Notes: generated from the sequence alone by a model not told the origin. Counted from the first letter of the stretch, positions 4,289-56,992 are shown. The stretch is 64,000 bases of DNA from a bacterium (GCA_018822805.1 JAHJJU010000101.1:1956-65955); one strand, 5' to 3'. Program-made: numbers and translations.

Positions 4289-4320
4289 TCATTCACACAA
4301 AATAAAACCCACAAAACCCG

Positions 4321-6586: not shown

Positions 6587-6654
6587 AAAGTATGATAGAG
6601 TTTTTGACCTATAAAGTCAAGCCCTCTATCTTTGTTGTGCAGTCTATTAAAGTG

Positions 6655-8172: not shown

Positions 8173-8203
8173 CCTACGAACAACTCCGTGCATTTGGTTA
8201 GTT

Positions 8204-39121: not shown

Positions 39122-39814
39122 TTATAAAATTTTACTTCCACTACTTATATAAAAACTATTGAGAATTTTTGGACGATTTTTACTAAAATCATATTCAGCC
39201 AAAAGTTCCAATCTTCCTTCAAACTTTTGATTTGTAAATTTGACAAAATTGGTAAGTGGTTGATTTGAAGTAAAGTTTTCGCTTTTGCCTTTGATAGGAT
39301 TTTGGGTGTAGTCTGTTGCTTCTTCAATACTTTCCAGTTTCATCAACCCAAATCCATAGCGACTATCTCCACCTATAAAAATCTCTTTTAGCTCTTTTAA
39401 TATCTCTTTATTACAATTTACATACCCAACCCAATAAAGGTTATTGGGCAAAATGACATCAAGCTCGTGAAGTGATTCATCTTTTGCATTGAGCGTATTG
39501 GGATTAATCGCTGTTGAAAGAAGCGTGGTGACATACTTTTGTCTGAATTTAGCTTCAGGAACATTATTTAAACAAAATTCACCATTTTTATATTGTGGTT
39601 TAAACTCAATCCATCTAATTTTAGGATAAAAACAGCTAAGATTCTCAAAAAGTGTTGCTTCATAGTCACCTGTTTGATGAAAATATGCATTGGTCAATGC
39701 CCCCCACATCATCTGCCCTGTGATAAAAATTCTAGTTTCATTAATGACACGGTGCTTTCTATGCCCCAAATGAATCGGTTGAAGCTGTTTAAATGTTACT
39801 TTGTACCAACTCAT
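39122..39814 (-). CDS. CRISPR RAMP protein, Cas5-group (Cmr3-like in III-C gene order)
   Basis: FKQLQPIHLG N-terminal strand, GQMMWGAL and G-rich loop IGGDSRYGFG; last gene of the operon. Confidence 0.75.
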   Translation of the reverse strand: MSWYKVTFKQLQPIHLGHRKHRVINETRIFITGQMMWGALTNAYFHQTGDYEATLFENLSCFYPKIRWIEFKPQYKNGEFCLNNVPEAKFRQKYVTTLLSTAINPNTLNAKDESLHELDVILPNNLYWVGYVNCNKEILKELKEIFIGGDSRYGFGLMKLESIEEATDYTQNPIKGKSENFTSNQPLTNFVKFTNQKFEGRLELLAEYDFSKNRPKILNSFYISSGSKIL

Positions 39815-39816
39815 TT

Positions 39817-40131
39817 TTAATCCATCGCTTTAGCGTGGTATCGTGCATAAGTGAGGGCTTTTTCTAATATCTCTTTGAAAAATAAAAGTTGATTTAAGTC
39901 TTTGGATAAATTTTGAAAATATTGCTCGTAATCATCATTCGATTCTAAGATTGCGTTTAGTGTTTCTAAAAGTTTATTTTCATCTATATCTTTTTTGGAT
40001 TTACAATACACCCACATCGCATAAACCCCATCTTGTGCCAAAACACCTAAGATTTTATTGATAAGATTTTCATCTATAACTTTAGATATTTCATACCCTG
40101 CCTTATTAATTTCTGCATCAAGATTTTTCAT
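39817..40131 (-). CDS. CRISPR type III small subunit (Cas11/Cmr5-like)
   Basis: 104-aa helical protein with LGVLAQDGVYAMW and C-terminal YARYHAKA, directly after cmr4. Confidence 0.72.
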   Translation of the reverse strand: MKNLDAEINKAGYEISKVIDENLINKILGVLAQDGVYAMWVYCKSKKDIDENKLLETLNAILESNDDYEQYFQNLSKDLNQLLFFKEILEKALTYARYHAKAMD

Positions 40132-41116
40132 TTAACGCTCCTAAAATTTTCATCCGTCCAAACCCTCTCGTCGTCATTCCACCAACTCCTAAACTCTCAT
40201 AGTATTGTTTAGAATCATTTAAAGCGTTAAATATATCATCTAAATTTAGCAGACCATTATCTCTTTGAAATCCTCTCACTTCCCCACAAAAAATAGTACC
40301 TCTAGGTATTGCTTCAGAAGTAAACAATGCAGTATCCTTAGCTGCTCCTGTGATGGGGTCGATGGAGACAGAGGTACGCACTTCTAGGTTAGCGTTGATA
40401 ATTTGAGAAATAAGAGAATCGGGTACAATGATGATGTCGTCAAGTTTTAATTTACTACTTTGTAAATCACTATCTTCTAAATTGTGTTGTCTTTGAACTT
40501 CTAAGTTTAACCACCCTAAATTAAGATACTTTTCATCACCTTTAGAGGTTAGTATTTTATTTTCTTGGATTGCTATATCTTTATCTAAAAGCTTTGGTGA
40601 AGTTATCCATTTAACACCCAATCTCGTATAAACAGGGAAAAACAAAATATTCAAATCACTAAAAAAGAGCATTCCTTGATTGGATAAATCTTTTTTGGAA
40701 AATCCAAACGATTTACAAACGATACAATGACCACAGTGACCTAACTTTTCTTTTGACTCTTCTAATGTACTTTCTGCTTCATCATCTTGACCAGCACATT
40801 TAATCGCTGAAAAACGATTACCATTAAAATTTTTCATCCACTCTTTTGGAGCGTTAAAAAGCTCTTGAATGTTCTCTTTTTTCTCTTCTCTTTTTTTTCT
40901 ATCTTGTTTGTACTCATCTTTAAAACTACTTTGCAACTCCAACGCCACATAATATCGCCAAGTTCCTGCCATACTACTACCAGGAATTTTGGGTATGCGA
41001 GTGATGGGGTCTCGTACGATGGTATTATCGACTCTACCAATAGTGAACCCACCTGTACCGATATGAATGGGGTCGATTGCCATTGCTATAATTTTTTTGC
41101 TTTCTACACTGCTCAT
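40118..41116 (-). CDS. cmr4: CRISPR Cas7-group RAMP Cmr4
   Basis: PIHIGTG..RVDNTIVRD..PKIPGSSMAG, RTSVSID, LFTSEAIPRGT and LGVGGMTTRGFG; Cys-rich insertion. Confidence 0.85.
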   Translation of the reverse strand: MSSVESKKIIAMAIDPIHIGTGGFTIGRVDNTIVRDPITRIPKIPGSSMAGTWRYYVALELQSSFKDEYKQDRKKREEKKENIQELFNAPKEWMKNFNGNRFSAIKCAGQDDEAESTLEESKEKLGHCGHCIVCKSFGFSKKDLSNQGMLFFSDLNILFFPVYTRLGVKWITSPKLLDKDIAIQENKILTSKGDEKYLNLGWLNLEVQRQHNLEDSDLQSSKLKLDDIIIVPDSLISQIINANLEVRTSVSIDPITGAAKDTALFTSEAIPRGTIFCGEVRGFQRDNGLLNLDDIFNALNDSKQYYESLGVGGMTTRGFGRMKILGALNEKS

Positions 41117-41118
41117 TG

Positions 41119-43815
41119 TTATATCTCCTTTAGTGTTGTATGATAATATGCGAACATATCAAGAAATTTTGTTATCTCTTTAAAACTACAATCATTTATC
41201 CCAAACTGTAATAACTCGATGTTCTCTTTTTTAAATGTTGTTTTGATAAAGCGTTCAAAGCTATCTTCTTCATCTTTCCAATCCTCCATCTTGCTATAGA
41301 TGAGGCTCACCAGTGTTTGAAGTTGATTGCTTTTGTTGGCAAATTGCTCTTTGAAGCGTTTAAATTGTTCCCACTCTTGCCAACTATAAGGGCGATTGGA
41401 TTTAAGCTCAATCGTTCGTTTACCACTCTTATAAAAAATATCATTTCGCCTACTGTTGGTATCGAGAAATTCAAAATCTATAGTGTTAAGATAAATTGTG
41501 AAGTTATCAGTAGTGTTGTATTTTTTGATTCCTTTACTTGATGGCAAAAGTGAAAAATCATACTCTTGATTATCTGTTTCATAAAGAGAGTAGAAATCTT
41601 GTGAATTATTATTGCTCTCTTTTACATCAAAATAAGAACTCAACTCTTTTAATTTTTCATTTGTACTTATTTCACTCCAATTTTTGACATCTCGGCGTAT
41701 ATTTCGCAAAGCTTTGATACCTACATAAAGAGGTTTTTTATAGTTTTGCACCACCACACCGATATGAAGTGGCAATTTACCATTGACATATTTGAAGTTT
41801 TGATAATAGAGCTTTTGGATTTTGTCGATAGTACACTCTAACTTTTCTGTTGGGATAATAAACTGCCAAGAGATAGGTGTGGGGTCGATGATGGAGAAGT
41901 ATTGTTTGTAAAATTCTTCCTTGATTTGTGATTCTAAATTTGCAAAATCTGGAACTTTTTGTACAAAACCTTTTTTTGTTCTAATTGTTTGAATACTCCC
42001 CAAAACATCATTTTTCACCTCATCAAAAAATCCTTCTGTACTCTCCCACACTCTTCGTAGCCTTGCAGGTGATGGGTTTTTTCGTAGGAGGAATTGTAAA
42101 ACTATTTTAGATAAAAAATTAAATTCATCATCAGTTAAAGTATCCCATTCAATTATTCTATTTTGAAAGTTAATTTTATTATTTACACCATCTTTGAGAA
42201 AATTTTCATAAATTGTGCCTATGGCTCTTTCGATAAACCAAGTTTCTACAACTTTTCTTAGTGGTTGATTAACTGGAATATTTTCACTGTAATTTTTGAT
42301 ATATAAAGTGTCATTTAATTCCTTGGCATCTTTTAATACAGCATAAATATCATTTACATAATCCTGATATCTTAATTGAGTCAAATCCAACTGTTGTCCC
42401 AATAAACTACTAAGTAAACTACCATTTAACCACTCAATAAGTTCAAATTTCAAAGTAACCATTGCTACACGGTTATTTTTATCAGCTAATTCACCTATCC
42501 AAATTGTTTCACCATCTTGTTTATTAAGCCACTTCTCAACTCGTCCTTGTTTTCTATTTTGGCAAATCTCGCACATAGGTATATCATCATTTGTTTTAGT
42601 TGCAAATCTACTTTGACAAACTTGGCAAATACCTATTGCATCTTCAATCTCATTGGGATTTTCTTTTTTTGAATAATCGGCTTTTAGGAAGTTTTCTTTA
42701 GCTTTTTCTAAAAAAGTAGTTAAATTCATTGTGGCTCGAGTAGGCTTACTTAAAAGAATCGCAGGATAAAATTCATCATTGGTAGTAGTATGAAAAATAT
42801 CTAAAATCTTATTTTTTATTTCATCTAAATCTGTATGCAGTTCATAAAAATCTCCATTTTCAACACCTTTTAAATTTTCGGAAACTAAAAAGTAAATCCC
42901 TGTTTCATCTCTATAAACTTCATTACCTAAAGCATATTTATTTTCAATCAAATTTTTTAATTTCAAATCAATTATTTTAGTCATTTTTCGATAAGTTTGA
43001 ATATGAGCAGGTTTGAGTCCTTTTTCTGCTAAAGAGAGTTTATCGTATTGGATTGCTAATATGCTCCAATTTATTTTTGATAAGTCATAATTATTGGTAT
43101 TGATTGGTTGTAAGTAAACTCCTGCTAAAAGTGCTTTGAACATTGAAGTTGCCATATAGGCTTGATCCCAAAGGGTTGTATCGTTGAGTGGAAATCTCGT
43201 ATCAGATGGTAAGTTTTTGTAAAGATTCTCAATAATGCTTAGAATTTTCTTTCTATCACTATAAAAATTAAAATCCGTTGTAGATAGCCTATTGAGTAGA
43301 ATGGTAATATCATTTGTATAAAGATTACGAGCTTCATCAAATAAATTGGGATTAGCCGTAGATTTAAAAGAACCAAAACTATTACTAAGCCAAGAATAAT
43401 CTCCTATAATTTGTTCTTTTGGACTTCCCTTTTCTATACCAGAATTTAACCCCTCGGAAGCACCGTAGAGTTTTTGTAAAATTTTTAATTGACTTGTAAT
43501 TTGATGAGGATTATTCCCTCTCCATTTTCGCCAATCTTTAAAAAAGTGTTGCCATAGATTTATTTCATTTTGATTTTGAGTATAGTTTGTCATTAATTTG
43601 GAAACATCTATTTTAATATTTTGAAAAGTAGTTTCTAAAATACTCTTTATTTCTTGATTTTGATTCTCATATAAAGCTGTTTCACAACTAAAATATCCAT
43701 TCTTTTTCCACCAACTCAAAAAAGTTTTTTCAATCAAAAATAGCAAACTCCCAATCTCAGCCTTTAAAATCTCATCTTTATTATCTGTTAAATCATTTAC
43801 ATTCATTTTTATCAC
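41119..43815 (-). CDS. cas10: Cas10-family large subunit (Csx11/III-C type) with no HD and no GGDD motif
   Basis: SDTRFPLNDTTLWDQAYM, LGNEVYRDETGIYF, CQVC..CEIC zinc finger, KNPSPARLRRVW, GKLPLHIG and DFEFLDT motifs of Csx11-like proteins. Confidence 0.82.
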   Translation of the reverse strand: MIKMNVNDLTDNKDEILKAEIGSLLFLIEKTFLSWWKKNGYFSCETALYENQNQEIKSILETTFQNIKIDVSKLMTNYTQNQNEINLWQHFFKDWRKWRGNNPHQITSQLKILQKLYGASEGLNSGIEKGSPKEQIIGDYSWLSNSFGSFKSTANPNLFDEARNLYTNDITILLNRLSTTDFNFYSDRKKILSIIENLYKNLPSDTRFPLNDTTLWDQAYMATSMFKALLAGVYLQPINTNNYDLSKINWSILAIQYDKLSLAEKGLKPAHIQTYRKMTKIIDLKLKNLIENKYALGNEVYRDETGIYFLVSENLKGVENGDFYELHTDLDEIKNKILDIFHTTTNDEFYPAILLSKPTRATMNLTTFLEKAKENFLKADYSKKENPNEIEDAIGICQVCQSRFATKTNDDIPMCEICQNRKQGRVEKWLNKQDGETIWIGELADKNNRVAMVTLKFELIEWLNGSLLSSLLGQQLDLTQLRYQDYVNDIYAVLKDAKELNDTLYIKNYSENIPVNQPLRKVVETWFIERAIGTIYENFLKDGVNNKINFQNRIIEWDTLTDDEFNFLSKIVLQFLLRKNPSPARLRRVWESTEGFFDEVKNDVLGSIQTIRTKKGFVQKVPDFANLESQIKEEFYKQYFSIIDPTPISWQFIIPTEKLECTIDKIQKLYYQNFKYVNGKLPLHIGVVVQNYKKPLYVGIKALRNIRRDVKNWSEISTNEKLKELSSYFDVKESNNNSQDFYSLYETDNQEYDFSLLPSSKGIKKYNTTDNFTIYLNTIDFEFLDTNSRRNDIFYKSGKRTIELKSNRPYSWQEWEQFKRFKEQFANKSNQLQTLVSLIYSKMEDWKDEEDSFERFIKTTFKKENIELLQFGINDCSFKEITKFLDMFAYYHTTLKEI

Positions 43816-44695
43816 TCCAAAAGCACTCTATTTTTATATCTTGACTTTTTCCCCAACCAAGTTTGGTTTTTGCACCAATGCCATTGTTTAGAGCTTTATT
43901 TATGCAGTTTTTTAAAAATTCTAAATCAGCCTTAGCCTCTTTTTCGATTTTCTCCTTACTCTCTAAAACAGCATCAAAGGGAATATAAACAATCTGCAAT
44001 TCTGATGTAGTCCCTTTGGGTACGACTTCATAATGGATAGGATTGGTTCCTGCTTTGGTTTTACGGTTATGAGGATTGATGATTTCAAGTGAAAGCTTGT
44101 CAAAATAAGTAGCGTAAAAGATGGCTCTGCCTTTCGCTGCTTTACTCTTTTTATACTTTTTAAAAATACTTTTCACATCTTCATTGACATCTATTATCAA
44201 GCCATTGAGCATAAAAAAGAGTTTAAAGTCATCATCATTCACCTTATCCACCACATTTTCAAATGCTTCTCCACCGACACCAAAGAGCCTAAAATAACTC
44301 TCTAGCTCTTCATAGCCTTTAACCAACTCTCTAGCACTACTTAACAATGCCCCTTTCCACCCACTCCCTCGCATCATTGGAACTTTAAAAACCTTTTCTT
44401 TTAAGCAAGGATTATTGATGATATAAAACTCATCGTCATCACTTGAATAATAGGGAGCTTGAAGAGTAAAGGTGGTTTGAAGTGCAAAGGAGTTTGGAAT
44501 AGAGATTTTGATAAGCTCTTTTGTATCTACTTTGAGTAATTTTTCTAGCTTTTGTTTGTCGCCCAATTGATAGGTTTTATTTGATTTAATAGAGTTTTTA
44601 AAAGTTGGTAGATTTGTATCCTTCTTTTCAAACCCATATTTGAGTTTTAAAAAAGTATTGTTGTGATTTTTATTTAAGATTGCTTCATAATTCAT
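43793..44695 (-). CDS. CRISPR Cas7-group RAMP (Cmr6-like)
   Basis: PMMRGSGWKGAL, LFG, IINPH..PIHYEVVPKG and GIGAKTKLGWG. Confidence 0.8.
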   Translation of the reverse strand: MNYEAILNKNHNNTFLKLKYGFEKKDTNLPTFKNSIKSNKTYQLGDKQKLEKLLKVDTKELIKISIPNSFALQTTFTLQAPYYSSDDDEFYIINNPCLKEKVFKVPMMRGSGWKGALLSSARELVKGYEELESYFRLFGVGGEAFENVVDKVNDDDFKLFFMLNGLIIDVNEDVKSIFKKYKKSKAAKGRAIFYATYFDKLSLEIINPHNRKTKAGTNPIHYEVVPKGTTSELQIVYIPFDAVLESKEKIEKEAKADLEFLKNCINKALNNGIGAKTKLGWGKSQDIKIECFWSDKNECK

Positions 44696-44708
44696 TTTTT
44701 AGCTCTTA

Positions 44709-45350
44709 TCATAGTTTTCTAATTCCCTGCTTATTGGTTTGACGATTCTTTTTAATATCATCTTGTTTATTTTTTTCATCAATTTCTTTATTTATTGCTA
44801 GTTGTGCTTGTATTCTTTTTGTATCATCTTCAGTTTTTTTTAGATTAGACTGTTTAATTTTGATTTTAAATTTTCCACCCTTTTGTTTTTTTTGACCTTT
44901 TCCAATATGTATTTCTTGCTTTTCTAGCCAAATTTTAAATTGATTGAATTCCTCTAAAAAATCATTGTCAATTAAAAAACTAACTGATTTTAAGGTAAAT
45001 TTATCTTTATCTGCTTCAATGGAATGAATAACTATCCGACTCTTCCACCTCGTACAGCCAAAAAGTTGTGATTCTAAAGATATTTCCTGTTCGTCAAGTA
45101 TCTCTTTAATATTTTTTTTACCTATTGATTTTTTAAATTTTTCATAATCAAGAATCTCATTAGGAACATTATTTACATTATCAAGTTTTGATAATTTAGC
45201 TGTATCATCTTTGTAACATTCACGAAAAGCAAACCGTAAACTCCCCATAATAGCCGTAGCTTTAAGCTCACTATTTTCACTCCATGCATCACCTGTCCAA
45301 ATAGGTGTTATGGTTTCAAACTCTATTGTTATCTCTTCTTGTTTTCTCAT
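44709..45350 (-). CDS. CRISPR RAMP (Cmr1-like), short
   Basis: ETITPIWTGDA, IMGSLRF and QLFGCTRWKSR; ATG overlaps the cas6 stop (TGATG); 213 aa with a Lys-rich tail. Confidence 0.72.
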   Translation of the reverse strand: MRKQEEITIEFETITPIWTGDAWSENSELKATAIMGSLRFAFRECYKDDTAKLSKLDNVNNVPNEILDYEKFKKSIGKKNIKEILDEQEISLESQLFGCTRWKSRIVIHSIEADKDKFTLKSVSFLIDNDFLEEFNQFKIWLEKQEIHIGKGQKKQKGGKFKIKIKQSNLKKTEDDTKRIQAQLAINKEIDEKNKQDDIKKNRQTNKQGIRKL

Positions 45351-46018
45351 CACGCCACAACCTCCAAAAATCCTAAATTTTTCATGGTGTCTTTTCCCAT
45401 GCCTATGGCTAACAACATATTGAGCATTTTCGTACTTGCTTTTATGTGATAGATAGCGAACCAAGATTTGATGGGTTGTTTACTGTAAAAAAAGAGTTTT
45501 GGTTGCTCTTTTTGGTAAACGACTTCTATTTCAAAGGTATCTTGATAGGGTTCATTAAAAAAGGTTTCATATTTTTGTAGGGCGTTGTTTTTGATAATCT
45601 CTTGAAACTTTGAGGTTTTGGGTTCTATGTATATTTTTCGTTTTTCATTGTTGCCATCTTTTATATCGACTGCTACGAAACCTTTTACTTTTAACGCATC
45701 TTTGGTGGTGGTTTTATCAACAAGTTGCACCGAGGTATCGGTAATGGTTACTTCTCCGAGTTTGAGTCCATTGGTCAAGACTGCTTGGGCTAAGCGTCTT
45801 TCATTTTGTGGGTCAAGTGAGGTAAATTCTATGGTTAAACTATAATCATAATAACCCACTCTAAAGTTAAGAGCTTTAAAGATTTTGCCACTGCTGTGTT
45901 GCTCTCCTTTATGTTCTTTGTCATCAAGATTGGTATAGATAAACGATTGTGTCAGTTTAGCCAACACCCGTTTAATGGGCAGGTTCTTAGTCGGAATTTT
46001 AGAGCTTATTTTTAACAT
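45350..46018 (-). CDS. cas6: CRISPR-associated endoribonuclease Cas6
   Basis: C-terminal G-rich loop GMGKDTMKNLGF; first gene of the operon, next to the leader; start set at MLKISS with upstream RBS. Confidence 0.8.
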   Translation of the reverse strand: MLKISSKIPTKNLPIKRVLAKLTQSFIYTNLDDKEHKGEQHSSGKIFKALNFRVGYYDYSLTIEFTSLDPQNERRLAQAVLTNGLKLGEVTITDTSVQLVDKTTTKDALKVKGFVAVDIKDGNNEKRKIYIEPKTSKFQEIIKNNALQKYETFFNEPYQDTFEIEVVYQKEQPKLFFYSKQPIKSWFAIYHIKASTKMLNMLLAIGMGKDTMKNLGFLEVVA

Positions 46019-46241
46019 TTTTTGCCTTCTTTTTTGTAAAAAACATATTGATGTGACACGTATTATAACCAAAAGAAGAAGCAAAAAAATCTAATGTCTC
46101 TTTTTAAAGCTATATTTAAGTTTCAAAGAATCATTGTTTTTAGGGCTTTTCTATTTTGTTTATTTTAAATTAAGTCTATTTTAAGTATAATTCAATGTTC
46201 AAATTTTAAATAAAAGCCCAATTTTACGGCTTTTTCTTGCT
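46019..46241. promoter_or_regulatory. CRISPR leader / divergent promoter region
   Basis: AT-rich non-coding segment; TATAAT on minus (46062-46067, toward cas6) and on plus (46186-46191, toward the array). Confidence 0.6.
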
Positions 46242-49200
46242 ATTTGAATTTGCCCTTTTAGGGTTTGAAACGTATGGTGCTAATGTTATTATAACTAAAA
46301 TCACATTCTATTTGAATTTGCCCTTTTAGGGTTTGAAACGTGCTACTGGTTTTTGTGTTTTGTGAAAAGTTTTACCATTTGAATTTGCCCTTTTAGGGTT
46401 TGAAACTCAGATAAAGACTTTTTGATTTTCCCTTTTTCTGATTTGAATTTGCCCTTTTAGGGTTTGAAACCAAGAGCTAGAAGAGGGTAGAGAGTATAAA
46501 GAAATTATTTGAATTTGCCCTTTTAGGGTTTGAAACAGAGTCCAAAAACTATAATACCGACAACCCCACCAATTTGAATTTGCCCTTTTAGGGTTTGAAA
46601 CTAAACATTGTATGTGAAGAGAACGGGTATGAGCCTAATTTGAATTTGCCCTTTTAGGGTTTGAAACCAGATGATACCTTGAGTGATTGGGAACAGCTTG
46701 GAACATTTGAATTTGCCCTTTTAGGGTTTGAAACGACTGAGAACAGATGGGGGTGATAACTATATTGTAATTTGAATTTGCCCTTTTAGGGTTTGAAACG
46801 TGACCATTTCATATCCAGTAGGGATTGAGCCATAATTTGAATTTGCCCTTTTAGGGTTTGAAACAAATATCTGAATAATTAAGCAAAATTTACCCTTTAA
46901 TTTGAATTTGCCCTTTTAGGGTTTGAAACGAAGAGGTTGAAGAGTACAAGTCTTTCTCTGAGATATTTGAATTTGCCCTTTTAGGGTTTGAAACACGTTG
47001 GTTTTGTTCATACACTTCTAACTCTAAGTATTTGAATTTGCCCTTTTAGGGTTTGAAACAATTTTCAATTCTAGTAAGTTCTCCATCGAACCAAATTTGA
47101 ATTTGCCCTTTTAGGGTTTGAAACAATTCCATCACAGATGCTGTAAATACAGCCAACTCAATTTGAATTTGCCCTTTTAGGGTTTGAAACTACGGTTGCA
47201 TCGTATATGATTTCACATCGTGTCGAATTTGAATTTGCCCTTTTAGGGTTTGAAACGTTAGTGTAGAGTAGTTCATAATGATTCCTTTAGTTAATTTGAA
47301 TTTGCCCTTTTAGGGTTTGAAACAAGACGCTAACTAAATAGCATCTTCTTCTGTTGCTGGATTTGAATTTGCCCTTTTAGGGTTTGAAACGTAAAATTTT
47401 TACTAAATCGTTCATAGTTTTCACCTCATTTGAATTTGCCCTTTTAGGGTTTGAAACAAAAGTATAATCACAGAGAGTATCTGTGAAAAAAATTTGAATT
47501 TGCCCTTTTAGGGTTTGAAACAAAAAGAAAATTCATTACAATCAGTAGTGAACGATCATTTGAATTTGCCCTTTTAGGGTTTGAAACCAAATACTGCATT
47601 AGCAATCTTAGCTTGTTCTTCAGATTTGAATTTGCCCTTTTAGGGTTTGAAACTTTTTAAGGGGTCTATGTACTAACCCCTCAACATATTTGAATTTGCC
47701 CTTTTAGGGTTTGAAACAATCTAGTCTATAGATTTGCGGAAGAATCCATGAAAATTTGAATTTGCCCTTTTAGGGTTTGAAACTTTAAATCTAAGAAAAT
47801 TTGATGTGGTATTCCAAAGATTTGAATTTGCCCTTTTAGGGTTTGAAACCTCATTTTCTTACCTTGTGTTTTATTTGTTTTATCTATTTGAATTTGCCCT
47901 TTTAGGGTTTGAAACTAGCCACATGTATCTTTTGCTCGTGAAAATTTGGTTAAATTTGAATTTGCCCTTTTAGGGTTTGAAACTCCTGTGTCGTCGACGC
48001 ATCAGAATCAATATCGTGATTTGAATTTGCCCTTTTAGGGTTTGAAACCATAAAGCCGTGAACATCTTGAACTCTGCAAGTGTATTTGAATTTGCCCTTT
48101 TAGGGTTTGAAACATCCCTAATTTGTTGGTGTACCAATGGTACTGGTATATTTGAATTTGCCCTTTTAGGGTTTGAAACTAGTTACATAGTGTATTTTAC
48201 CCTTACATTATATTATATTTGAATTTGCCCTTTTAGGGTTTGAAACGCTCTACATTGTAAGACTCTTCAATCTCCTCTATTTGAATTTGCCCTTTTAGGG
48301 TTTGAAACTGAAAATTTCTGTGAAGAAAATTCTAAAGAAGATATTTGAATTTGCCCTTTTAGGGTTTGAAACCTCTTGAAGCAGAAGCTGCACTTTCAGG
48401 AAGATATATTTGAATTTGCCCTTTTAGGGTTTGAAACAATAGTTTTCGCCAGTAAGTGAACCTTCAACAACTTATTTGAATTTGCCCTTTTAGGGTTTGA
48501 AACTCGCTTCATTAAAGCATAAACTATATATTTAACGTATTTGAATTTGCCCTTTTAGGGTTTGAAACTCATTTTGGTGAACTCCATTTTCTCACAATAG
48601 TTGATTTGAATTTGCCCTTTTAGGGTTTGAAACTCGTAGTTACTTGACGGCCCATATGTCCCTGATTTTATTTGAATTTGCCCTTTTAGGGTTTGAAACG
48701 TTTGAAAATACCAAAGAGGTACAGTCAGTACTTCAATTTGAATTTGCCCTTTTAGGGTTTGAAACATCTCTTTCAGCTCTGCATCACTGCAAAGCACCTG
48801 CATTTGAATTTGCCCTTTTAGGGTTTGAAACGGAGGAAAACTCCCAGTGTCGTATGAAAGTGCCGAGAATTTGAATTTGCCCTTTTAGGGTTTGAAACAC
48901 TTTATATTACGATGTTTAGCGACCATCTCGACAATTTGAATTTGCCCTTTTAGGGTTTGAAACCTAAATTTAAAAGCTTATTCCCATCGAAATTTAATAT
49001 TTGAATTTGCCCTTTTAGGGTTTGAAACTAACCTTCCCTAAGTTTACTGTTAGATCTTAGAGTATTTGAATTTGCCCTTTTAGGGTTTGAAACATTTCCC
49101 ATCCTGCCCAAATGGCTACGGCTTGTTTTATTTGAATTTGCCCTTTTAGGGTTTGAAACCTGAATGTTATGGTGGAGTATGCTACATTTATATATTTGAA

Positions 49201-50073
49201 TTTGCCCTTTTAGGGTTTGAAACGCCGAACTGTTAGCAGCATGTTGTCTCATATTATATTATTTGAATTTGCCCTTTTAGGGTTTGAAACGGACTGAATA
49301 CGTCTGAAGTAATAAAGACAGTAGGTATTTGAATTTGCCCTTTTAGGGTTTGAAACGGTAATACTGCTACAGGTGCTAGAGGTGCTTTAGATTTGAATTT
49401 GCCCTTTTAGGGTTTGAAACAGGCTTCTATTCTAGTAAGTTCTCCATCGAACCAACCATTTGAATTTGCCCTTTTAGGGTTTGAAACCTAAATGTAGCAT
49501 ATGCTACTGCCATAATGGCTACATTTGAATTTGCCCTTTTAGGGTTTGAAACAAAATAGCAAGTGATTTACAAGTGCAATTCACCAAATTTGAATTTGCC
49601 CTTTTAGGGTTTGAAACTATAAAATTGGTGAACTAAAATAAGAGCAAATCGATTTGAATTTGCCCTTTTAGGGTTTGAAACAAAATGGACTGGAGCTTGA
49701 GTATGAACTTTAGTAGATTTGAATTTGCCCTTTTAGGGTTTGAAACACGCCAGTACGGTAACGTTAAAAGCAGAGGCATTATTTGAATTTGCCCTTTTAG
49801 GGTTTGAAACTCTCGCTATAGTTTTCATTTTTCATTCTAAAATTAATTTGAATTTGCCCTTTTAGGGTTTGAAACACTTCAGCACCAGCACCAACAAATA
49901 CATCAGGATTTATATTTGAATTTGCCCTTTTAGGGTTTGAAACGCATCTCCATATCGTCATGAAGTCCAATCGTAGGAATTTGAATTTGCCCTTTTAGGG
50001 TTTGAAACGCAATTGATGGAGAAGACACATACTCAAATGTTTCATTTGAATTTGCCCTTTTAGGGTTTGAAAC
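46242..50073 (+). CRISPR. CRISPR array, 59 identical 30-bp repeats ATTTGAATTTGCCCTTTTAGGGTTTGAAAC with 58 internal spacers of about 32-38 nt, plus a 59th spacer and a 6-nt partial repeat to 50114
   Basis: Counted by hand from 46242 to 50044; repeat has a CCCT-TTT-AGGG hairpin and a 3' GAAAC end, which sets the orientation. Confidence 0.98.
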
Positions 50074-50122
50074 GTCTCTTCGGACAACGCAGGTGAATGT
50101 TATGATTGATTTGATATATTAA

Positions 50123-50287: not shown

Positions 50288-50692
50288 ATGAGAGTTGTCA
50301 CAGGTGTGGTAGGGAATGATATTCATGTGGTCGCCAATCGGCTCATAGAAATTTCCCTCAAAGAGAGAGGGTTTGAGGTATTTAATTTAGGGGTTAACAC
50401 CTATCTTGAAGAGTTTATCGATGCCGTAATAGAGACCGATGCTGATGTACTGCTCATCTCATCGCTCAATGGTGAAGCTGAAGGGTGGTCACGTGATTTG
50501 CTGTTTTTGAAAAGCCGTTTTGATTTGGATGGCGTGCTTTTTGCCATTGGGGGGAACCTGAGTGTGGGTGAAGCAACCAGTGAAGAGATTGTTCCAAAAT
50601 ACAAAGCCTATGGCTACGATTTGGTCTTTCATCAAGTTGATTTGAACACAGGAATTGATACCATAGAAGAAGTCTTAAAGGAGAGAGCATAA
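50288..50692 (+). CDS. glmS: Glutamate (methylaspartate) mutase B12-binding S subunit
   Basis: DIHVVA (DxHxxG variant), ISSLNG and GGNL cobalamin-binding motifs; overlaps the next gene. Confidence 0.85.
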   Translation: MRVVTGVVGNDIHVVANRLIEISLKERGFEVFNLGVNTYLEEFIDAVIETDADVLLISSLNGEAEGWSRDLLFLKSRFDLDGVLFAIGGNLSVGEATSEEIVPKYKAYGYDLVFHQVDLNTGIDTIEEVLKERA

Positions 50693-52044
50693 TGTTTCAA
50701 AGAGAACGAGAGATTATTACCAGTACTCCTTATACCGACAGTTTTGATTTTGATGAGATAAAAGCGTTCATTACAGGTGCGAGTAAAAACCTGTTTATCT
50801 CACACAAGTTTAAAACCTCTGACAAAATTTTAGTACAACCTCGTGGAGGTTTTCCTACTTACGACAAAGTCTTTGAACTCTACGGTGCATTTACAGGAGC
50901 TGGAGTAGACATACTTCCACTTACCATTGACTCTAACACAAGGCTGAATGACTATGAGATGGCTAGAAAGATGTTGGCATTATCTGAAGAGAACGATGAA
51001 AACATGCTCAACGGTTATCCATTGGTCAATCATGGCTATAGAACCACTCGAAAAATGGTCACCCATTATGACACCCCTATTAGCTTGCGACACGGAACCC
51101 CCGATGCCCGACTTTTGGTTGAGGTAGCCTTGGCTTCAGGTATTTTCGAGATAGAGGGTGGACCCATTACCTATCTACTCCCCTACTCTAAAAACTTTCC
51201 ATTAGACAAAGCCTTTTTATACTGGAAATATGTCGAACGCGTCTGTGCCGAGTATTCAGAGCTCAATGAACCCATTAATCGTGAGTCATTTGGACCCCTC
51301 TCGGCAACCCTTCAACCCCCTGCCATTGTGATTGTGATTCAGTTGCTTGAAATGCTCTTATCACTTGAAGAGGGCGTAAAATCATTCTCGGTGAGTTTTT
51401 CTCAAACAGGCTCGATGTCACAAGACATTGTCAGCTCAAACGTCATTAAAAAATTGGCTCGTAAATATGCTGAAAAAATCGGCTGTGGCGATGCCGATAT
51501 CCACCTGGTTTACCACCAATGGATGGGGGCTTTTCCACGAAACAAAGAGTTTTCAGACTCACTTATTAACACCTCAACCGTGATTGCATCCATGGTACGG
51601 GCTGACAAGATGATTACCAAAACCCGTGATGAAGCCTTTGGAATTCCAACCAAAGAGGTCAATGCTGCTGCTGTACGTAACACGCAATATACACTTAATA
51701 TGTTAAGAGGCATCCCATCCATCACCGATGAAGAGGAAGAAGCAAACCTCACCGAAATGGTGGACGACATTATGGAAGCTGTTTTTAATGACCCTGCCGA
51801 TACCTTATGGCGACAGGTCTTTAACTCGATTAAAAATGGAATTATCGACATTCCTTTTTCACCACATATTGCCAACCATGGTGAAGCGATTACCGTACGT
51901 GATAAAAATTATAATATTCGATTCTATGAACGAGGCAATGTCCCTATTAGCGACAAATGTTTGGCTTTTGAACGCTCAAAAATAGACTTGTGTGGAGCGT
52001 CATTGGTTGACCATATTATTCATGACATCGGGATCATGCTGTAA
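50692..52044 (+). CDS. glmE: Glutamate (methylaspartate) mutase E subunit
   Basis: QPRGG, TIDSNTRLN, LNGYPLVNHG, RHGTPDARLL, EGG, INRESFGPL, HQWMGAFP and KTRDEAFGIPT match Clostridium GlmE motifs. Confidence 0.9.
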   Translation: MFQREREIITSTPYTDSFDFDEIKAFITGASKNLFISHKFKTSDKILVQPRGGFPTYDKVFELYGAFTGAGVDILPLTIDSNTRLNDYEMARKMLALSEENDENMLNGYPLVNHGYRTTRKMVTHYDTPISLRHGTPDARLLVEVALASGIFEIEGGPITYLLPYSKNFPLDKAFLYWKYVERVCAEYSELNEPINRESFGPLSATLQPPAIVIVIQLLEMLLSLEEGVKSFSVSFSQTGSMSQDIVSSNVIKKLARKYAEKIGCGDADIHLVYHQWMGAFPRNKEFSDSLINTSTVIASMVRADKMITKTRDEAFGIPTKEVNAAAVRNTQYTLNMLRGIPSITDEEEEANLTEMVDDIMEAVFNDPADTLWRQVFNSIKNGIIDIPFSPHIANHGEAITVRDKNYNIRFYERGNVPISDKCLAFERSKIDLCGASLVDHIIHDIGIML

Positions 52045-52149
52045 TTTGACAATTACAGCATAAGTTTAACCCTATAGAATTATTGATATTAGGAGTATGT
52101 TTATGGGTAATTGGCTATATAAAATGTTAACGTTTTTATTAAATAATAG

Positions 52150-54153
52150 ATGTTGAAAATTGCTCAAAATATAGGTCTTATTGTATTATCGCTATTGGTG
52201 CATCTTTATTTCTACAACAGTGAACATATAAAAAAATTTGATTATGACTTTTATGACTTTCTAACCGTCCACTCCCATAAACTTGAAGCACAAAAAGAGA
52301 GTTTCTATCCCGTAATCATTGATATTGATGAAAAAAGTTTACATCAGCTTGGTCAATGGCCTTGGCCAAGAGTCATTGATGCACAAATTATTGATACCAT
52401 TAACCGTATGAATCCATCTGCCATCGGTGTCAATATACTTTTTCCGGAAAGAGACAGGGTCTCTCCTCGCTCTATTCAAAATTTTTATAAAAACTTTTTT
52501 AATTTAAATCTTCAATTTAGTGAGTTTCCTGAAGAGATGAAAGATAACGATAGGCTTTTATCTGCATCTATAAAAAAATCAGGAGCTACACTTTCAACCT
52601 ATTTTAGTAACAGCCCTTATACAGCTTCACATTGCCAAAACATATCCTATAAGCAAAATAACTTCTCTAACATAAAGAGTGACTTTAATGCCTCTTCCCT
52701 GCTGTGTAATTATGAAAAAATACAAAATGGCGTAGAAAATTTTGGTTTTATAAATGCTTGGACCGACAGTGATGGAATTTTTAGAAGGATTCCCCTTTTT
52801 ATGCATTATAAAGAAGAGACTTTCCCCTCTTTTGCCTTAGCAACCCTTTTGAGTTTTGATAACTATATCAATTTAAATACCAATGATTCTACTATTTTAG
52901 TCAATTTTTCTCATAAAAAACCTAAAATATTCTCTGCTATTGATCTCTTAAACGGTAAAGTTTCAAGCGATGATATTCAAGGTAAAATTGTTATTATAGG
53001 TTCTTCTATCGTTGGCTTAAACCCTACCTATCTTATTTCAAGTGGTGAAAAAATTTCAAACTCAATGATTCATGCTTTTGTTATAGACAACATTTTAAAC
53101 AACTCTTTTCTTACCCAACCGGACAGGTACAAACAGATTAATCTTTTCCTCTCTTTTTTACTTTCTATACTCATTATTATATTGCTTTCTGAAAAATTTT
53201 ATGTTTATACATTCGGTCTGATCTTTACAGCAAGTGGCATAAGTATTGTATGGTTAATCTATGCGTATACACATAACATTTATATCTCCATTGGCTATTT
53301 ATGGACACCATTTCTTTACTTTTTTATCGTTATGCTGGCTTATCATGCAAAAGTTATAAACAAAGAGAGACAAGAACAAGAAAAACTTTTAATTCGACAA
53401 AGTAAATTGGCATCAATGGGAGAGATGATTACACTTATCGCCCATCAATGGAGACAACCACTGTCGGTCATTAATGGTATTGTACTGAATATGGATATGG
53501 ATTATCGAAAACAAGATCTTCAGCCAAAAGAAATTTATGATAAAAAATTTGATGAACATTTAAATAAAATAGAAGAGACAACAGCCTACTTATCAAAAAC
53601 CATTAATGATTTTACCGATTTTTTTTCAAAAAATAAAAAAAGTGAACGCTTTTATATGGAAGAAGTTATCACTCAAGTTCAACACTTATCACTGATTTCC
53701 AATTATAAAAATATTCAAATAATTTATAGAAAAAAAGAAAATATTGCACTTATTGGATACAAATCTGAACTTATACAGTCGCTTCTAATTATTATAAATA
53801 ATGCCATTTGTGCTTGTGAACAAAATTTGCCTCTTACAAAACAAGGTCAAATTAGTATTAATACCTACCTCTTAAAAACCAATCTATTTATATCTATTGA
53901 GGACAATGGTGGAGGTATAGACAATAAAGATTTAAAAAAAATATTCGACCCTTATTTTACCACCAAAGAAAAACCTCATGGTACAGGTTTGGGGCTTTAT
54001 ATTTTGAAGCTCATTGTTGAAGACAGCCTGAATGGTAAAATTTCTGTAAGTAACAGTAAAAAAGGTGCTACTTTTACGATTAAAATTCCTATAAATATAG
54101 AAGAAAACAATCCAATACAAACAAGAAAATTATCTAGAAAATCACTACCGTAA
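52150..54153 (+). CDS. CHASE2-domain sensor histidine kinase (no adjacent response regulator)
   Basis: IIDIDEKSL..LGQWPWPR and DSDGIFRRIPL CHASE2 motifs, 3 TM segments, MGEMI..IAHQWRQPL H-box, DNGGGI and GTGLGL. Confidence 0.9.
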   Translation: MLKIAQNIGLIVLSLLVHLYFYNSEHIKKFDYDFYDFLTVHSHKLEAQKESFYPVIIDIDEKSLHQLGQWPWPRVIDAQIIDTINRMNPSAIGVNILFPERDRVSPRSIQNFYKNFFNLNLQFSEFPEEMKDNDRLLSASIKKSGATLSTYFSNSPYTASHCQNISYKQNNFSNIKSDFNASSLLCNYEKIQNGVENFGFINAWTDSDGIFRRIPLFMHYKEETFPSFALATLLSFDNYINLNTNDSTILVNFSHKKPKIFSAIDLLNGKVSSDDIQGKIVIIGSSIVGLNPTYLISSGEKISNSMIHAFVIDNILNNSFLTQPDRYKQINLFLSFLLSILIIILLSEKFYVYTFGLIFTASGISIVWLIYAYTHNIYISIGYLWTPFLYFFIVMLAYHAKVINKERQEQEKLLIRQSKLASMGEMITLIAHQWRQPLSVINGIVLNMDMDYRKQDLQPKEIYDKKFDEHLNKIEETTAYLSKTINDFTDFFSKNKKSERFYMEEVITQVQHLSLISNYKNIQIIYRKKENIALIGYKSELIQSLLIIINNAICACEQNLPLTKQGQISINTYLLKTNLFISIEDNGGGIDNKDLKKIFDPYFTTKEKPHGTGLGLYILKLIVEDSLNGKISVSNSKKGATFTIKIPINIEENNPIQTRKLSRKSLP

Positions 54154-54249
54154 TAAATTATGTTTAACTTAAAAAAACTACTTTTTTAGATATAATCTCT
54201 TTTCACTTTTCGAGAAAGGAAATAACACAATTTCAGTGTTATAGATTTA

Positions 54250-55443
54250 ATGAACAAACTACAAATAGATATAGGAAGTACCTACTTTAAGACCAATGCC
54301 AATGGTGAGATTAACCAACATTTTAGAAATTTTGATGTCGCTATTTATGATGATTTGCACAACAAATGTGCCGACCTTTTAGCCAACTATAGCAAAGAAG
54401 AAGTTCATATTTGTAGCTCTGCCAATGGGGGGCTTAGTACACTGATTATTGGGATTACCTCGCTTTTTTCTCTCAAATATGCCACCAACATTGCTTTTAA
54501 CTCAGGAATTAATATTATTGATACCATTCTCTACTCAACCATTGACAAGGCTGTGGCTCCTAAAGAGGTGATTGATGTGGTGATTGTGGTTGGAGGGATT
54601 GATGGGGTTGAATCTAAATTTGATGAGAAACTTATCAACTACCTCAAAAATGTTAACTATCAAAACATCGTCTATGTAGGTAACAAAGCAGACACGGTTT
54701 TTTTAAAGAAGCAGTTAAAAAATCTTGTGGTTTTACCAAACATTATCGGCGACAAACTCCAAGTGCAAGAAGAGGAACTTAAAGAATATCTAACCAACCT
54801 TTATCAATCCGATATTGAAGGGAAAGAGGAGATTAAAAAGCTTTATGAGATTACTTCCAATCAAATCTACTCAACACCCTACATTGTCAACAACGCCCTA
54901 CCTAAACTGGGAACACTTTTTGATGTGGCAGACCCTTTTTTGGTTATCGATGTTGGTGGAGCGACGACCGATATTCACTACAGTACCGACTTGGTAGAGA
55001 ACAAAAATATTATGACCAGCTCCGGGTATGACCGTTTGGTTTTTAAAAAACTGGGGGTCTTTAAATCACGAGAGAGTTTGGTTTTTGGTGCAAAAAACAA
55101 TGAGTTTGTTTATGAACTTTTGGATTATTTGGGTGTAAACGAACATATTTTAGATGAACATAGCGAACAAGCCACCACCACACTGATGCAATTGGCTATT
55201 TTCTTGGTACTCTATCAGGTATCAAAAAGTCACAACGACTATGTGACTTTAAAACTGGAGATTTTAAACTCTATTGTCCTGACAGGAGGTATTTCAAAAG
55301 TACTCACCGATGAGGAGATTGATAAAATTATGCGCTTTTTTTACAAAAAAATACTAAACTTTACCCAAACCCCCAATGTCATTACCGACAGAAATTATGA
55401 AATTTGGACGTTAGGAATAGAGGAGATACACCATGCCAACTAA
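54250..55443 (+). CDS. glmL: GlmL/MutL-like glutamate mutase reactivating ATPase (ASKHA fold)
   Basis: DIGSTYFK, CSSANGGL, VVGGIDG, YVGN and VIDVGGATTDIH. Confidence 0.82.
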   Translation: MNKLQIDIGSTYFKTNANGEINQHFRNFDVAIYDDLHNKCADLLANYSKEEVHICSSANGGLSTLIIGITSLFSLKYATNIAFNSGINIIDTILYSTIDKAVAPKEVIDVVIVVGGIDGVESKFDEKLINYLKNVNYQNIVYVGNKADTVFLKKQLKNLVVLPNIIGDKLQVQEEELKEYLTNLYQSDIEGKEEIKKLYEITSNQIYSTPYIVNNALPKLGTLFDVADPFLVIDVGGATTDIHYSTDLVENKNIMTSSGYDRLVFKKLGVFKSRESLVFGAKNNEFVYELLDYLGVNEHILDEHSEQATTTLMQLAIFLVLYQVSKSHNDYVTLKLEILNSIVLTGGISKVLTDEEIDKIMRFFYKKILNFTQTPNVITDRNYEIWTLGIEEIHHAN

Positions 55444-56992
55444 TACCATTCGAGAGCTACTAGAAATCGCCAATGAGCAATCTCCGACTAAAATTGCTTT
55501 GGTCGAAAACGAGAAGAGCTACAGCTACCAAGAACTCTTTACCAAAGTCAACCAATTGGCCAACTATTTTAACCAATTAGAGTTGGTTGAAGGTTCAAGA
55601 GTGGGTATCTACTCGAACAAAGATTCCGAGCAGGTTATCGCCATTCTTGCCCTGCTCTCTACACCCTATATCATCGTACCCATTACACGATTTTTAAAGC
55701 CTGAACAGGTGGAATACATTGTAAAAGATGCCGGTATAGAATGTATTATTACCGATAAGACCAAAATAAAAAATATCAAGGAGATCAACTTCCAAGGTCA
55801 AATCATTACTTTTGAGCCTATTTATGATGAGATGGTTTCATTTAAAGAGATATACAAATGTTTTAATACCAAATACAATTCTAAAATTGACCCTACAAGC
55901 TCAGCTGTTATCACCTATGGTTTTGGTTCTGACGGGTCACAAAAAGGAATTGTGATGAGTCACAAAAACCTAAGTGATGGAGCTAGAATTGTTTCAAACT
56001 ATTTGGAGTTAACATCAGACGATGTTGTCTCAGGACTACTTTCGTTTAACCTTGACTACGGACTGAATCAAATTTTCTGTACGCTACAGAGTCAAGCGAC
56101 TTTGGCACTGCACAAATTTATCTTACCAAGTGACTTTTTTGCTCACCTACTTAGAGATAAAGTCACGGTTTTAGCCCTAATGCCTGTACATATCGGAAAA
56201 ATGTTCGATGAAGACCCACATCGACTCCCAATGTCCAGTCAACTTGACCATGTACGTGTTATTACCTCTTCAGGGGGTAACATTACCACCAAAATGGTTA
56301 AAAAGGTAGACGACTACTTTAAACCGGCCAAGTTCTACTCGATGCATGGACTAACAGAAGCGTTGCGTTCTACTTATTTAGACCCCTCACAGATTCATAA
56401 TCGCCCAACCTCTATAGGAAAAGCGATTCCTGAAGTAGAGGTTTATATTATTAATGAAAAAGGTGAAGCGTGTCAAGCCAATGAGGTGGGTGAACTGATT
56501 CACAGAGGTTGTTGTATCTACCAAGGATACTGGAACAGCAAAGAGGAGACCCAAAAACGGTTTAAAAATATTGCCATTTTAGAAAAAGTCATCAGCATAG
56601 AAGATCCAAGCGAAATGGTCATTGCTACAGGTGATTATGTCTACCAAGATGAAGAGGGATACATCTACTTCGTCGACCGACAAGATGACATGATAAAGAC
56701 CAGTGGTTATCGTGTCAGCCCAAAAGAGATAGAAGAGGTGGTTTACAACAATTTCCCAACAGTAAGCAAATGTACCGTCTTTGGAATCCCAAATGACGAA
56801 ATAGAAGAAGAGATTGTCTTGGTCTATGCTGCAAACACAAAAATTCCTCAAAATGAGTTGGTGTTTGAGCTTAAAAAACATTTGGCGACCTATATGGTGC
56901 CTACAGTGATTGAGTATCGAGAAACACTTCCACTTAAAGCTTCACATCATGAGGTGGTGGATAAGGGTCTGTTAAAGAAAGAGTTTTTCTAA
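55433..56992 (+). CDS. ANL-superfamily adenylate-forming enzyme (TIGR03098-like acyl-CoA ligase), atypical motifs
   Basis: LLSFNLDYGLNQ, GLTEALRST, GELIHRG..YQGYWN and TGD..RQDDMIKTSGYRVSPKEIEE; P-loop and A10 motifs divergent. Confidence 0.85.
   Translation: MPTNTIRELLEIANEQSPTKIALVENEKSYSYQELFTKVNQLANYFNQLELVEGSRVGIYSNKDSEQVIAILALLSTPYIIVPITRFLKPEQVEYIVKDAGIECIITDKTKIKNIKEINFQGQIITFEPIYDEMVSFKEIYKCFNTKYNSKIDPTSSAVITYGFGSDGSQKGIVMSHKNLSDGARIVSNYLELTSDDVVSGLLSFNLDYGLNQIFCTLQSQATLALHKFILPSDFFAHLLRDKVTVLALMPVHIGKMFDEDPHRLPMSSQLDHVRVITSSGGNITTKMVKKVDDYFKPAKFYSMHGLTEALRSTYLDPSQIHNRPTSIGKAIPEVEVYIINEKGEACQANEVGELIHRGCCIYQGYWNSKEETQKRFKNIAILEKVISIEDPSEMVIATGDYVYQDEEGYIYFVDRQDDMIKTSGYRVSPKEIEEVVYNNFPTVSKCTVFGIPNDEIEEEIVLVYAANTKIPQNELVFELKKHLATYMVPTVIEYRETLPLKASHHEVVDKGLLKKEFF

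Follow-up and report, generated by a model that had tools for sequence, protein, structure and literature searches.

Gene content of the locus

The stretch of bacterial DNA considered here (GCA_018822805.1 JAHJJU010000101.1:1956-65955, 64,000 nucleotides, hereafter the window) carries genes for the two subunits of a predicted adenosylcobalamin-dependent glutamate mutase (glmS and glmE), a GlmL/MutL-like ATPase and a stand-alone ligase of the adenylate-forming ANL superfamily (Table 1). The same genes recur in the same order in marine Campylobacterota and Gammaproteobacteria, together with a gene for an RraA-like protein, and the window is best read as carrying an interrupted copy of a five-gene module that is autonomous and mobile between species, with the organisation rraA-like <> glmS-glmE-glmL-ligase (where <> marks divergent orientation).

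The glmS and glmE genes overlap by 1 nt (TAATG) and the glmL and ligase genes by 11 nt, all on the plus strand, as the original prediction for this locus had described. Stop and start codons that overlap in this way suggest coupled translation, and a terminator-like hairpin beyond the ligase is the probable end of the transcription unit. The prediction had taken the interval from 50288 to 56992 as one set of mutase and ligase genes. The four genes are real, but the conserved RraA-like partner was missed, as was a CHASE2 sensor kinase that falls inside the interval between glmE and glmL, because of which the three mutase genes are non-contiguous in the window. An Rfam search of the window gave no match to a riboswitch or other RNA control element, and a search for evidence of its expression returned matches only in DNA runs of one biofilm metagenome.

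Table 1. Module genes, insertions and a terminator-like element in the window, with positions counted from its first nucleotide
Feature	Position	Strand	Details
glmS, B12-binding small subunit of glutamate mutase	50288-50692	+	134 aa; PF02310, NF002612
glmE, catalytic subunit of glutamate mutase	50692-52044	+	450 aa; PF06368, 389 bits
GlmL/MutL-like ATPase, ASKHA superfamily	54250-55443	+	397 aa; PF13941, 99 bits
Stand-alone ANL (adenylate-forming) ligase, amino-acid-adenylation-like, sister to TIGR03098	55433-56992	+	519 aa; PF00501 + PF13193
RraA-like protein, fifth conserved module member	38475-38966	-	163 aa; PF03737, 127 bits
CHASE2 sensor histidine kinase, insertion, outside the module	52150-54153	+	667 aa; CHASE2, HisKA and HATPase_c domains
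Type III CRISPR-Cas locus, insertion, outside the module	39122-50100	cas genes on -	cas genes 39122-46084; array 46241 to ~50100
Terminator-like hairpin just 3' of the ligase stop codon	56997-57020	+	Consensus scan only

Distribution and conservation of the module

A genome scan of one genome per species, with an alignment of the ligase as query, found the ligase in 327 species, and the best 80 loci were inspected. Among these, the carriers in Campylobacterota belong to Sulfurovum, Sulfurimonas, Nitratifractor, Hydrogenimonas, Arcobacter and Marinarcus, and those in marine Gammaproteobacteria to Colwellia, Thalassotalea, Amphritea, Neptuniibacter, Granulosicoccaceae and Spongiibacteraceae. The system had been put forward as apparently uncharacterised in Campylobacterota. 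A full-text literature search did find no paper on glutamate mutase in these taxa or on this gene combination, but the module is not confined to that phylum.

Of the 80 loci, nearly every one with enough flanking sequence has the order rraA-like <> glmS-glmE-glmL-ligase, with the glmS-glmE-glmL-ligase part recovered by tblastn. Stop and start codons often overlap among these four genes, in Hydrogenimonas, Sulfurovum, Sulfurimonas, Nitratifractor and Arcobacter as well as in the six gammaproteobacterial groups. Across these loci, identity to the window proteins is 64-96% for GlmE (71-96% once two loci are set aside) and 56-80% for the ligase (both by tblastn). The neighbour-joining tree of GlmE agrees with that of the ligase, and each groups the gammaproteobacterial copies (L053, L058, L060, L062, L065-L067, L071, L072, L074, L077, L080-L082, L084 and L085) with those of Arcobacteraceae. 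This congruence implies that the unit is inherited and transferred as a block and indicates its movement between phyla among marine bacteria. The proposed link between mutase and ligase is hence not a matter of chance, since the gene order recurs and the trees agree, and the survey of orthologous neighbourhoods that the original prediction had suggested as a check showed that the ligase does co-occur with glm genes.

The surroundings of the module differ almost everywhere. They comprise 305 distinct neighbour-gene clusters, the commonest Pfam family among 122 immediate neighbours occurs at most three times, and neither glycosyltransferases nor any other functions are enriched among these neighbours. 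The module is autonomous, unlinked to a fixed genomic context. The cell-surface product that had been proposed for it is not indicated by neighbours that are unrelated between genomes, and only one lineage adjoins a polysaccharide cluster. In that lineage (L086/L087, positions 1-8829), whose GlmE is the closest to that of the window (94% identity), the module lies beside Wzx, Wzy, GT4, asparagine synthase, WecG, acetyltransferase and DegT genes; this sole context hinting at a surface product is regarded as a single-lineage coincidence until shown otherwise. Another unusual arrangement occurs in a Campylobacterota metagenome-assembled genome (L013, 3028-5477), where the ligase is followed on the same strand by Amidoligase_2, Peptidase_C26/GATase and RraA-like genes, a rearranged module with two extra amide-bond enzymes.

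Glutamate mutase subunits and GlmL-like ATPase

The small subunit GlmS scores 148 bits against NF002612 (cut-off 110) and 94 bits against TIGR01501 (cut-off 136). Its base-off/His-on B12 motif D11-I-H13-V-V-A16, along with S58-S-L and G88-G-N, is invariant in 57 orthologues. Residues 11-16 (window positions 50318-50335) thus read DxHxxA, with Ala for the usual Gly, in 57 of 57 GlmS proteins of the module. The catalytic subunit GlmE far exceeds the cut-off of PF06368 (27 bits) and matches the crystallised clostridial enzyme (6H9E/1CCW) with an E-value of 6e-83 and 37% identity. In this alignment R51, R84, R133 and H134 correspond to clostridial R66, R100, R149 and H150, and E155-G-G, Y161 and Y165 to E171, Y177 and Y181, residues that we take to include the three carboxylate-binding arginines and the catalytic glutamate and tyrosine of the clostridial enzyme. 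All aligned glutamate-binding residues are invariant in 62 orthologues, and the earlier statement that GlmE keeps its substrate Arg motifs and EGG is confirmed. Because the equivalents of the binding Arg, His, Glu and Tyr residues are invariant, free L-glutamate is the simplest substrate to propose for GlmE.

The GlmL-like protein passes the cut-off of PF13941 (27 bits) and scores 57 bits against TIGR01319 (cut-off 204). It keeps the phosphate-1, phosphate-2 and adenosine motifs of the ASKHA superfamily (DIGSTYFK, DxGGATTD and LTGGI) and is 23-27% identical to canonical GlmL. Its AlphaFold2 model is poor (pLDDT 67), and the Foldseek matches are weak and all to ASKHA proteins. From its family membership, it is presumed to act as a chaperone or reactivase of the mutase. 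Many orthologues carry the JGI label 'mRNA-degrading endonuclease HigB', which looks wrong.

The adenylate-forming ligase

The closest named family to the ligase is TIGR03098, 'acyl-CoA ligase, exosortase A system-associated', to whose members it is 32-34% identical and against whose profile it scores 447 bits, short of the cut-off of 592. The best sequence matches in the PDB are adenylation (A) domains of non-ribosomal peptide synthetases (NRPSs), namely LgrA, GrsA and TycA, and VinN of the vicenistatin pathway is only a distant match (E-value 7e-31). Residue D208 corresponds to Asp235 of GrsA, the ligand of the substrate amino group, and D208, Y209, N212, Q213, T278-S-S, M304, H305, R312 and K422 are kept in at least 81 of 82 orthologues; the TE and GD motifs, the hinge residues R416/D418 and the A8 lysine K422 are invariant. 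The NRPS matches and the invariant D208 point to an amino-acid-type ligase, and profile, PDB matches and alignment together agree with its original description as amino-acid-adenylation-like and TIGR03098-like. A representative search covering 1.84 billion proteins gave, among the matches listed, only one ligase representative of the same family, in a list dominated by giant multi-domain NRPSs. The label 'long-chain-fatty-acid--CoA ligase' given to the protein by NCBI and UniRef looks wrong.

The AlphaFold2 model of the ligase (pLDDT 88) has the complete two-subdomain ANL fold, with TM-scores of 0.85-0.87 to 4CL and benzoate-CoA ligase and the best superposition on structures in the thioester-forming state; 4CL, MatB, MenE and benzoate-CoA ligase head the Foldseek list. 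As a discriminator the fold search was set aside, as it confirmed the ANL fold and left VinN-type enzymes inseparable from other members. The A8 motif reads IKTSGYRVSPxEIE, in which the Pro is presumably typical of coenzyme A (CoA) ligases. The A10 motif, PLKASHHEVVDK at 56930-56965 (residues 500-511), differs from the canonical P-x-x-x-N-G-K-x-D-R and carries an insertion of 2-3 residues, whereas NGK is kept in all NRPS A domains and TIGR03098 members compared, the latter being outgroup ligases taken from a plasmid collection.

The RraA-like protein

Clustering of all neighbours of the 80 related loci revealed an RraA-like partner, whose gene, found in at least 48 loci, lies upstream of glmS in divergent orientation, usually across a gap of ~25-150 bp. 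The window protein is 76% identical to the glmS-adjacent copy in locus L011. It passes the RraA equivalog NF006875 (168 bits, cut-off 136) and TIGR01935 (147 bits, cut-off 124), and scores 133 bits against NF009134, a model of putative HMG aldolases with a cut-off of 196. Its closest solved structure is Pseudomonas aeruginosa RraA (3C8O). The residues R97-D98, invariant in 47 copies, are the Arg-Asp pair that in HMG/CHA aldolase stabilises the enolate and binds metal.

To our knowledge, Campylobacterota lack RNase E, because of which an enzymatic or module-specific role for the RraA-like protein is plausible. RraA homologues are present in organisms without RNase E, as discussed by Seah and colleagues, and most are probably class II pyruvate aldolases or oxaloacetate decarboxylases (PMC5065237).

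Insertions in the window copy

In the window, a type III CRISPR-Cas locus of 11 kb separates the RraA-like gene from glmS. It sits exactly between these two genes, which are adjacent in relatives, and relatives carry no such insert. Its cas genes encode Csx11 (898 aa), Cmr4/Csm3-, Cmr6-, Cmr1- and Csm4-like repeat-associated mysterious proteins and Cas6, and its array contains ~59 copies of the repeat ATTTGAATTTGCCCTTTTAGGGTTTGAAAC, which belongs to repeat family D1. Neither cas1 nor cas2 was seen in this CRISPR-Cas locus.

The second interruption is the CHASE2 kinase. The glmE and glmL genes abut or overlap in relatives, and the kinase was found at their junction in none of the 80 scanned genome loci, nor in L002-L004 or L086/L087. 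A sister contig (L091, 2757-5708) has FecR, OmpA and a CHASE2 kinase of the same kind at this position, and a LysM protein occupies it in other Sulfurovum genomes. Because the junction lacks the kinase in all relatives save the sister contig, the kinase is a lineage-specific insertion at an insertion-tolerant junction, one that repeatedly takes insertions, as the kinase, FecR/OmpA and LysM cases attest. The kinase gene has a GC content of 30%, lower than that of glmSE (42%) and of the window as a whole (35%). Membership of the kinase in the pathway was considered and rejected, as it occurs only in the window and the sister contig. A perfect hairpin (ATGCTGTAATT-TGAC-AATTACAGCAT, 52035-52060) spans the glmE stop codon, at the left edge of this insertion.

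Functions sought in and around the module

As the original prediction stated, there is no mal gene in the window. Two methylaspartate ammonia-lyase (Mal) proteins used as tblastn queries gave no match in the 64-kb window or in 1.33 Mb of sequence from 89 related loci, and Pfam annotation of the called open reading frames of the window returned no Mal, carrier protein, pyridoxal phosphate (PLP) decarboxylase or cobalamin gene. The same tblastn search space held no match to a TIGR03099 decarboxylase or to a PduO/CobA-type adenosyltransferase. Within 4 kb of the module no carrier protein was detected by a small-open-reading-frame screen, a motif search or BLAST with AcpP, and both TIGR03098-linked acyl carrier proteins (ACPs), used as tblastn queries, also found no match near it. 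No hydratase, lyase, CoA-transferase or other gene of a mesaconyl-CoA pathway recurs near the module.

Comparison with known glutamate mutase and ligase systems

The fermentative glutamate mutase operons (mesaconate pathway) of Clostridia and some Enterobacteriaceae share with the module the S and E subunits, the B12- and glutamate-binding residues and a GlmL-family ATPase. Their gene order is glmS-glmL-glmE-mal (as seen in Peptoclostridium and in a plasmid-borne cluster of E. coli), in contrast to the S-E-L order of the module, and the Peptoclostridium cluster also has an adenosyltransferase, whereas the module has neither this enzyme nor Mal and in their place contains the ANL ligase and the RraA-like gene. 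The proteins have diverged as well, with GlmE 37% and GlmL ~25% identical to the canonical proteins and the GlmL of the module ~60 residues shorter.

A closer likeness is found in the vicenistatin starter-unit pathway of actinomycetes, in which a mutase (VinH/VinI) likewise stands without Mal beside a stand-alone adenylation enzyme. There, 3-methylaspartate made by the mutase is handled by the trio of VinN, the ACP VinL and the PLP decarboxylase VinO (PMC10662134). VinN reads 3-methylaspartate as a beta-amino acid by means of Asp230, the bulky Phe231, Ser299 and Lys330/Arg331, the last two on a shortened beta13-beta14 loop (reviewed in PMC11253843). By the criteria of that review, rather than by direct alignment, D208, Y209, S280 and R312 of the ligase are counterparts of these pocket residues. 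Compared with 14 A domains for alpha-amino acids, the ligase lacks ~3 residues in the corresponding loop, and so does the TIGR03098 family. The ACP, decarboxylase, second adenylation enzyme, acyltransferase and polyketide synthase of the vicenistatin pathway are all missing near the module. The hosts differ too: vicenistatin-type pathways belong to actinomycetes that produce macrolactams, whereas the module occurs in marine bacteria of the Campylobacterota and Gammaproteobacteria, in genomic surroundings that vary.

The other relatives of the ligase, the TIGR03098 enzymes, share with it the Asp and the loop GLTEA(F/L)RSTYLDP..RPxSIGKAIP, R312 included. The pockets differ, the window ligase having Tyr for Ala at position 236, a further change at 239, and TSS in place of ANT at 299-301, and true TIGR03098 members keep the motifs YTSGSTGKPKG and NGKFDR, whereas the P-loop and A10 of the window ligase are non-canonical. 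In a polysaccharide locus of Aureimonas, the gene directly after the TIGR03098 ligase encodes an 'exosortase A-associated' PLP decarboxylase and an ACP gene lies close by, a set that matches the VinN/VinL/VinO trio. A similar locus in Sinorhizobium meliloti has a PP-binding protein near the ligase and no decarboxylase listed, in a plasmid gene table that is incomplete. Neither the window nor any of ~80 module loci has a TIGR03099 PLP decarboxylase or an ACP as partner.

More distant parallels exist for single aspects of the module. EpmB, a lysine 2,3-aminomutase paralogue, and the ligase EpmA beta-lysylate elongation factor P. As may be the case here, a non-proteinogenic amino acid produced by a mutase is joined, by a dedicated ligase that uses ATP, to a housekeeping target encoded elsewhere, but the families are unrelated to those of the module (a radical S-adenosylmethionine aminomutase and a class II aminoacyl-tRNA synthetase paralogue) and nothing about the module points to a protein target. 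The haloarchaeal methylaspartate cycle likewise uses glutamate mutase outside fermentation, but it needs Mal, mesaconate CoA-transferase, hydratase and lyase, none of which is linked to the module. By analogy, the nearest functional parallels of the module appear to be the first steps of vicenistatin-type pathways and the TIGR03098/decarboxylase/ACP trio. The module belongs to neither, as the ligase lies below the TIGR03098 cut-off, the partners are absent and A10 is non-canonical, nor is it a fermentative operon. The original prediction is thus supported in part: the linkage, the absence of mal and the type of ligase stand, whereas the restriction to Campylobacterota, the surface product and the two analogies do not carry over, the last because both model systems require a stand-alone carrier and a PLP decarboxylase and ~80 genomes have neither near the module.

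Proposed function and alternatives

The module is best read as a biosynthetic or tailoring route rather than one of glutamate fermentation. With a probability of roughly 45%, and on sequence evidence, it would be an autonomous, non-fermentative unit that makes 3-methylaspartate, activates it with ATP and passes the acyl group to an acceptor encoded elsewhere. In the first and well supported step, GlmS and GlmE would form an adenosylcobalamin-dependent glutamate mutase that converts L-glutamate to (2S,3S)-3-methylaspartate, and the GlmL-like ASKHA ATPase, judging from its family, may keep the mutase loaded or reactivated. The ligase could then hold 3-methylaspartate in a small, polar pocket, where Asp208 would contact the amino group and Arg312 a carboxylate, and activate it with ATP. 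The equilibrium of glutamate mutase favours glutamate, and because of this an ATP-driven ligase step would pull flux forward, as Mal does in fermenters. The acyl group would finally go to an acceptor outside the module, for which CoA, a housekeeping holo-ACP, an amine or a macromolecule are candidates, and the RraA-like protein may be either a metal-dependent oxo-acid lyase or decarboxylase acting on a derivative or a regulator.

Several observations weigh against this proposal. The assignment of 3-methylaspartate to the ligase draws on two things only, gene linkage and resemblance of the pocket, and the likeness to VinN is compatible with it rather than diagnostic, because a bulky residue at 236 also occurs in ordinary A domains. 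The P-loop of the ligase is a variant, YSFGS(D/S/T)GxxKG, and the catalytic A10 lysine (GrsA K517) is shifted or missing across 82 orthologues, with His-His (505/506) at this site in the clade of the window and GK in orthologues such as those of the L024 clade. As the A10 lysine is unfixed and the P-loop variant, the usual adenylation chemistry is not guaranteed. GlmE, at 374 bits, lies just below the equivalog cut-off of TIGR01503 (390), and the GlmL-like protein, at 80 bits, falls far short of the equivalog NF040745 (475). The absence of mal holds for the window and the 89 related loci only, no acceptor is encoded near the module in the window or ~80 loci, and the glmL-ligase pair is separated from glmSE in some Sulfurovum genomes. 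The proposal also gives no definite task to the RraA-like protein.

Some of these features would fit a catabolic or assimilatory route independent of Mal, in which the ligase makes 3-methylaspartate-CoA, which is deaminated to mesaconyl-CoA and enters central metabolism, with the RraA-like protein as a downstream class II aldolase or decarboxylase, in effect a bacterial version of the methylaspartate pathway. The fold of the ligase resembles that of acyl-CoA ligases, its A8 motif has the Pro that we regard as typical of them, the lack of a nearby carrier protein suits CoA as acceptor, and the presumed function of most RraA homologues (PMC5065237) and the invariant R-D pair suit such a last step. 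It is nevertheless unlikely, since no mesaconyl-CoA gene recurs near the module, many of the carrier genera are obligate or facultative chemolithoautotrophs (judged at the level of the genus), and the invariant Asp208 and the closest relatives of the ligase favour amino-acid adenylation feeding a carrier. The enzymes might instead act on other substrates, the mutase on a glutamate analogue and the ligase on aspartate, glutamate or a dicarboxylic acid, or the ligase of the window's clade might be degenerate. The modest identity of GlmE to characterised enzymes and its score just under the TIGR01503 cut-off leave room for this, as do the P-loop variant, the unfixed A10 lysine and the pocket differences from TIGR03098 at 236, 239 and 299-301. 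The invariance in GlmE of the equivalents of the three carboxylate-binding arginines, Glu171, Tyr177/181 and His150 makes it decidedly unlikely, and the strong conservation of the ligase (57-90% identity, with many invariant pocket residues) is unlike decay.

A role in supplying 2-oxobutyrate as a precursor of isoleucine was also weighed, by which 3-methylaspartate would be transaminated to 3-methyloxaloacetate and this converted to 2-oxobutyrate by the RraA-like protein as decarboxylase, the ligase being left with a side or regulatory function. That isoleucine may be made from beta-methylaspartate is a long-standing idea in biochemistry, and it gains some weight from the RraA-like protein, the only conserved partner besides the ligase, which keeps the enolate-stabilising, metal-binding Arg-Asp pair of HMG/CHA aldolase/oxaloacetate decarboxylase. 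Yet no aminotransferase is conserved with the module, the ligase would lack a role although it is linked as tightly as RraA, and the protein is of the short RraA type without the C-terminal region that bears the second metal ligand of the aldolase (Glu199); NCBIfam classes it as an RNase E regulator, the score against the aldolase model being below cut-off. This route is thus very unlikely. That the genes merely lie together and share no function is scarcely credible: the glmE-glmL junction does tolerate insertions and the two gene pairs are separated in some Sulfurovum, but the order is kept across two phyla while the surroundings change, the trees are congruent and the codons overlap.

If 3-methylaspartate is indeed made and activated by the module, this would be a third setting for glutamate mutase, beside fermentation with Mal and a few actinomycete natural-product pathways. 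A further-reaching version, which is doubtful, holds that it constitutes a B12-dependent marine route to a new 3-methylaspartate-derived metabolite or 3-methylaspartyl-modified acceptor, with a non-canonical ligase and a metabolic RraA unrelated to RNase E. Such a metabolite could be a compatible solute or, for example, an amide or thioester, and the modified acceptor could be a protein, lipid, glycan or RNA. The carriers include Sulfurovum, Sulfurimonas, Arcobacter and relatives, important chemolithoautotrophs of vents and sediments, as well as marine Colwellia, Amphritea and Granulosicoccus. For these bacteria the module would define a new B12-dependent marine function and thereby add to the reasons why they need cobalamin. 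It would also provide a metabolic context for RraA-like proteins in Campylobacterota and correct the routine misannotation of the ligase as a 'long-chain-fatty-acid--CoA ligase' and of GlmL as 'HigB'. Since cultured carriers exist, the question is open to direct testing; those that can be grown include Thalassotalea sp. ND16A, Amphritea sp. HPY, Arcobacter sp. CECT 8985 and Hydrogenimonas urashimensis.

Other genes of the window

The remaining called open reading frames of the window are, by Pfam, housekeeping and signalling genes only. Among its other products is a secreted-type protein of 1591 aa, encoded at 15970-20745 on the minus strand, which combines an IMPa/M60-like metalloprotease with F5/8 type C (galactose-binding) domains.

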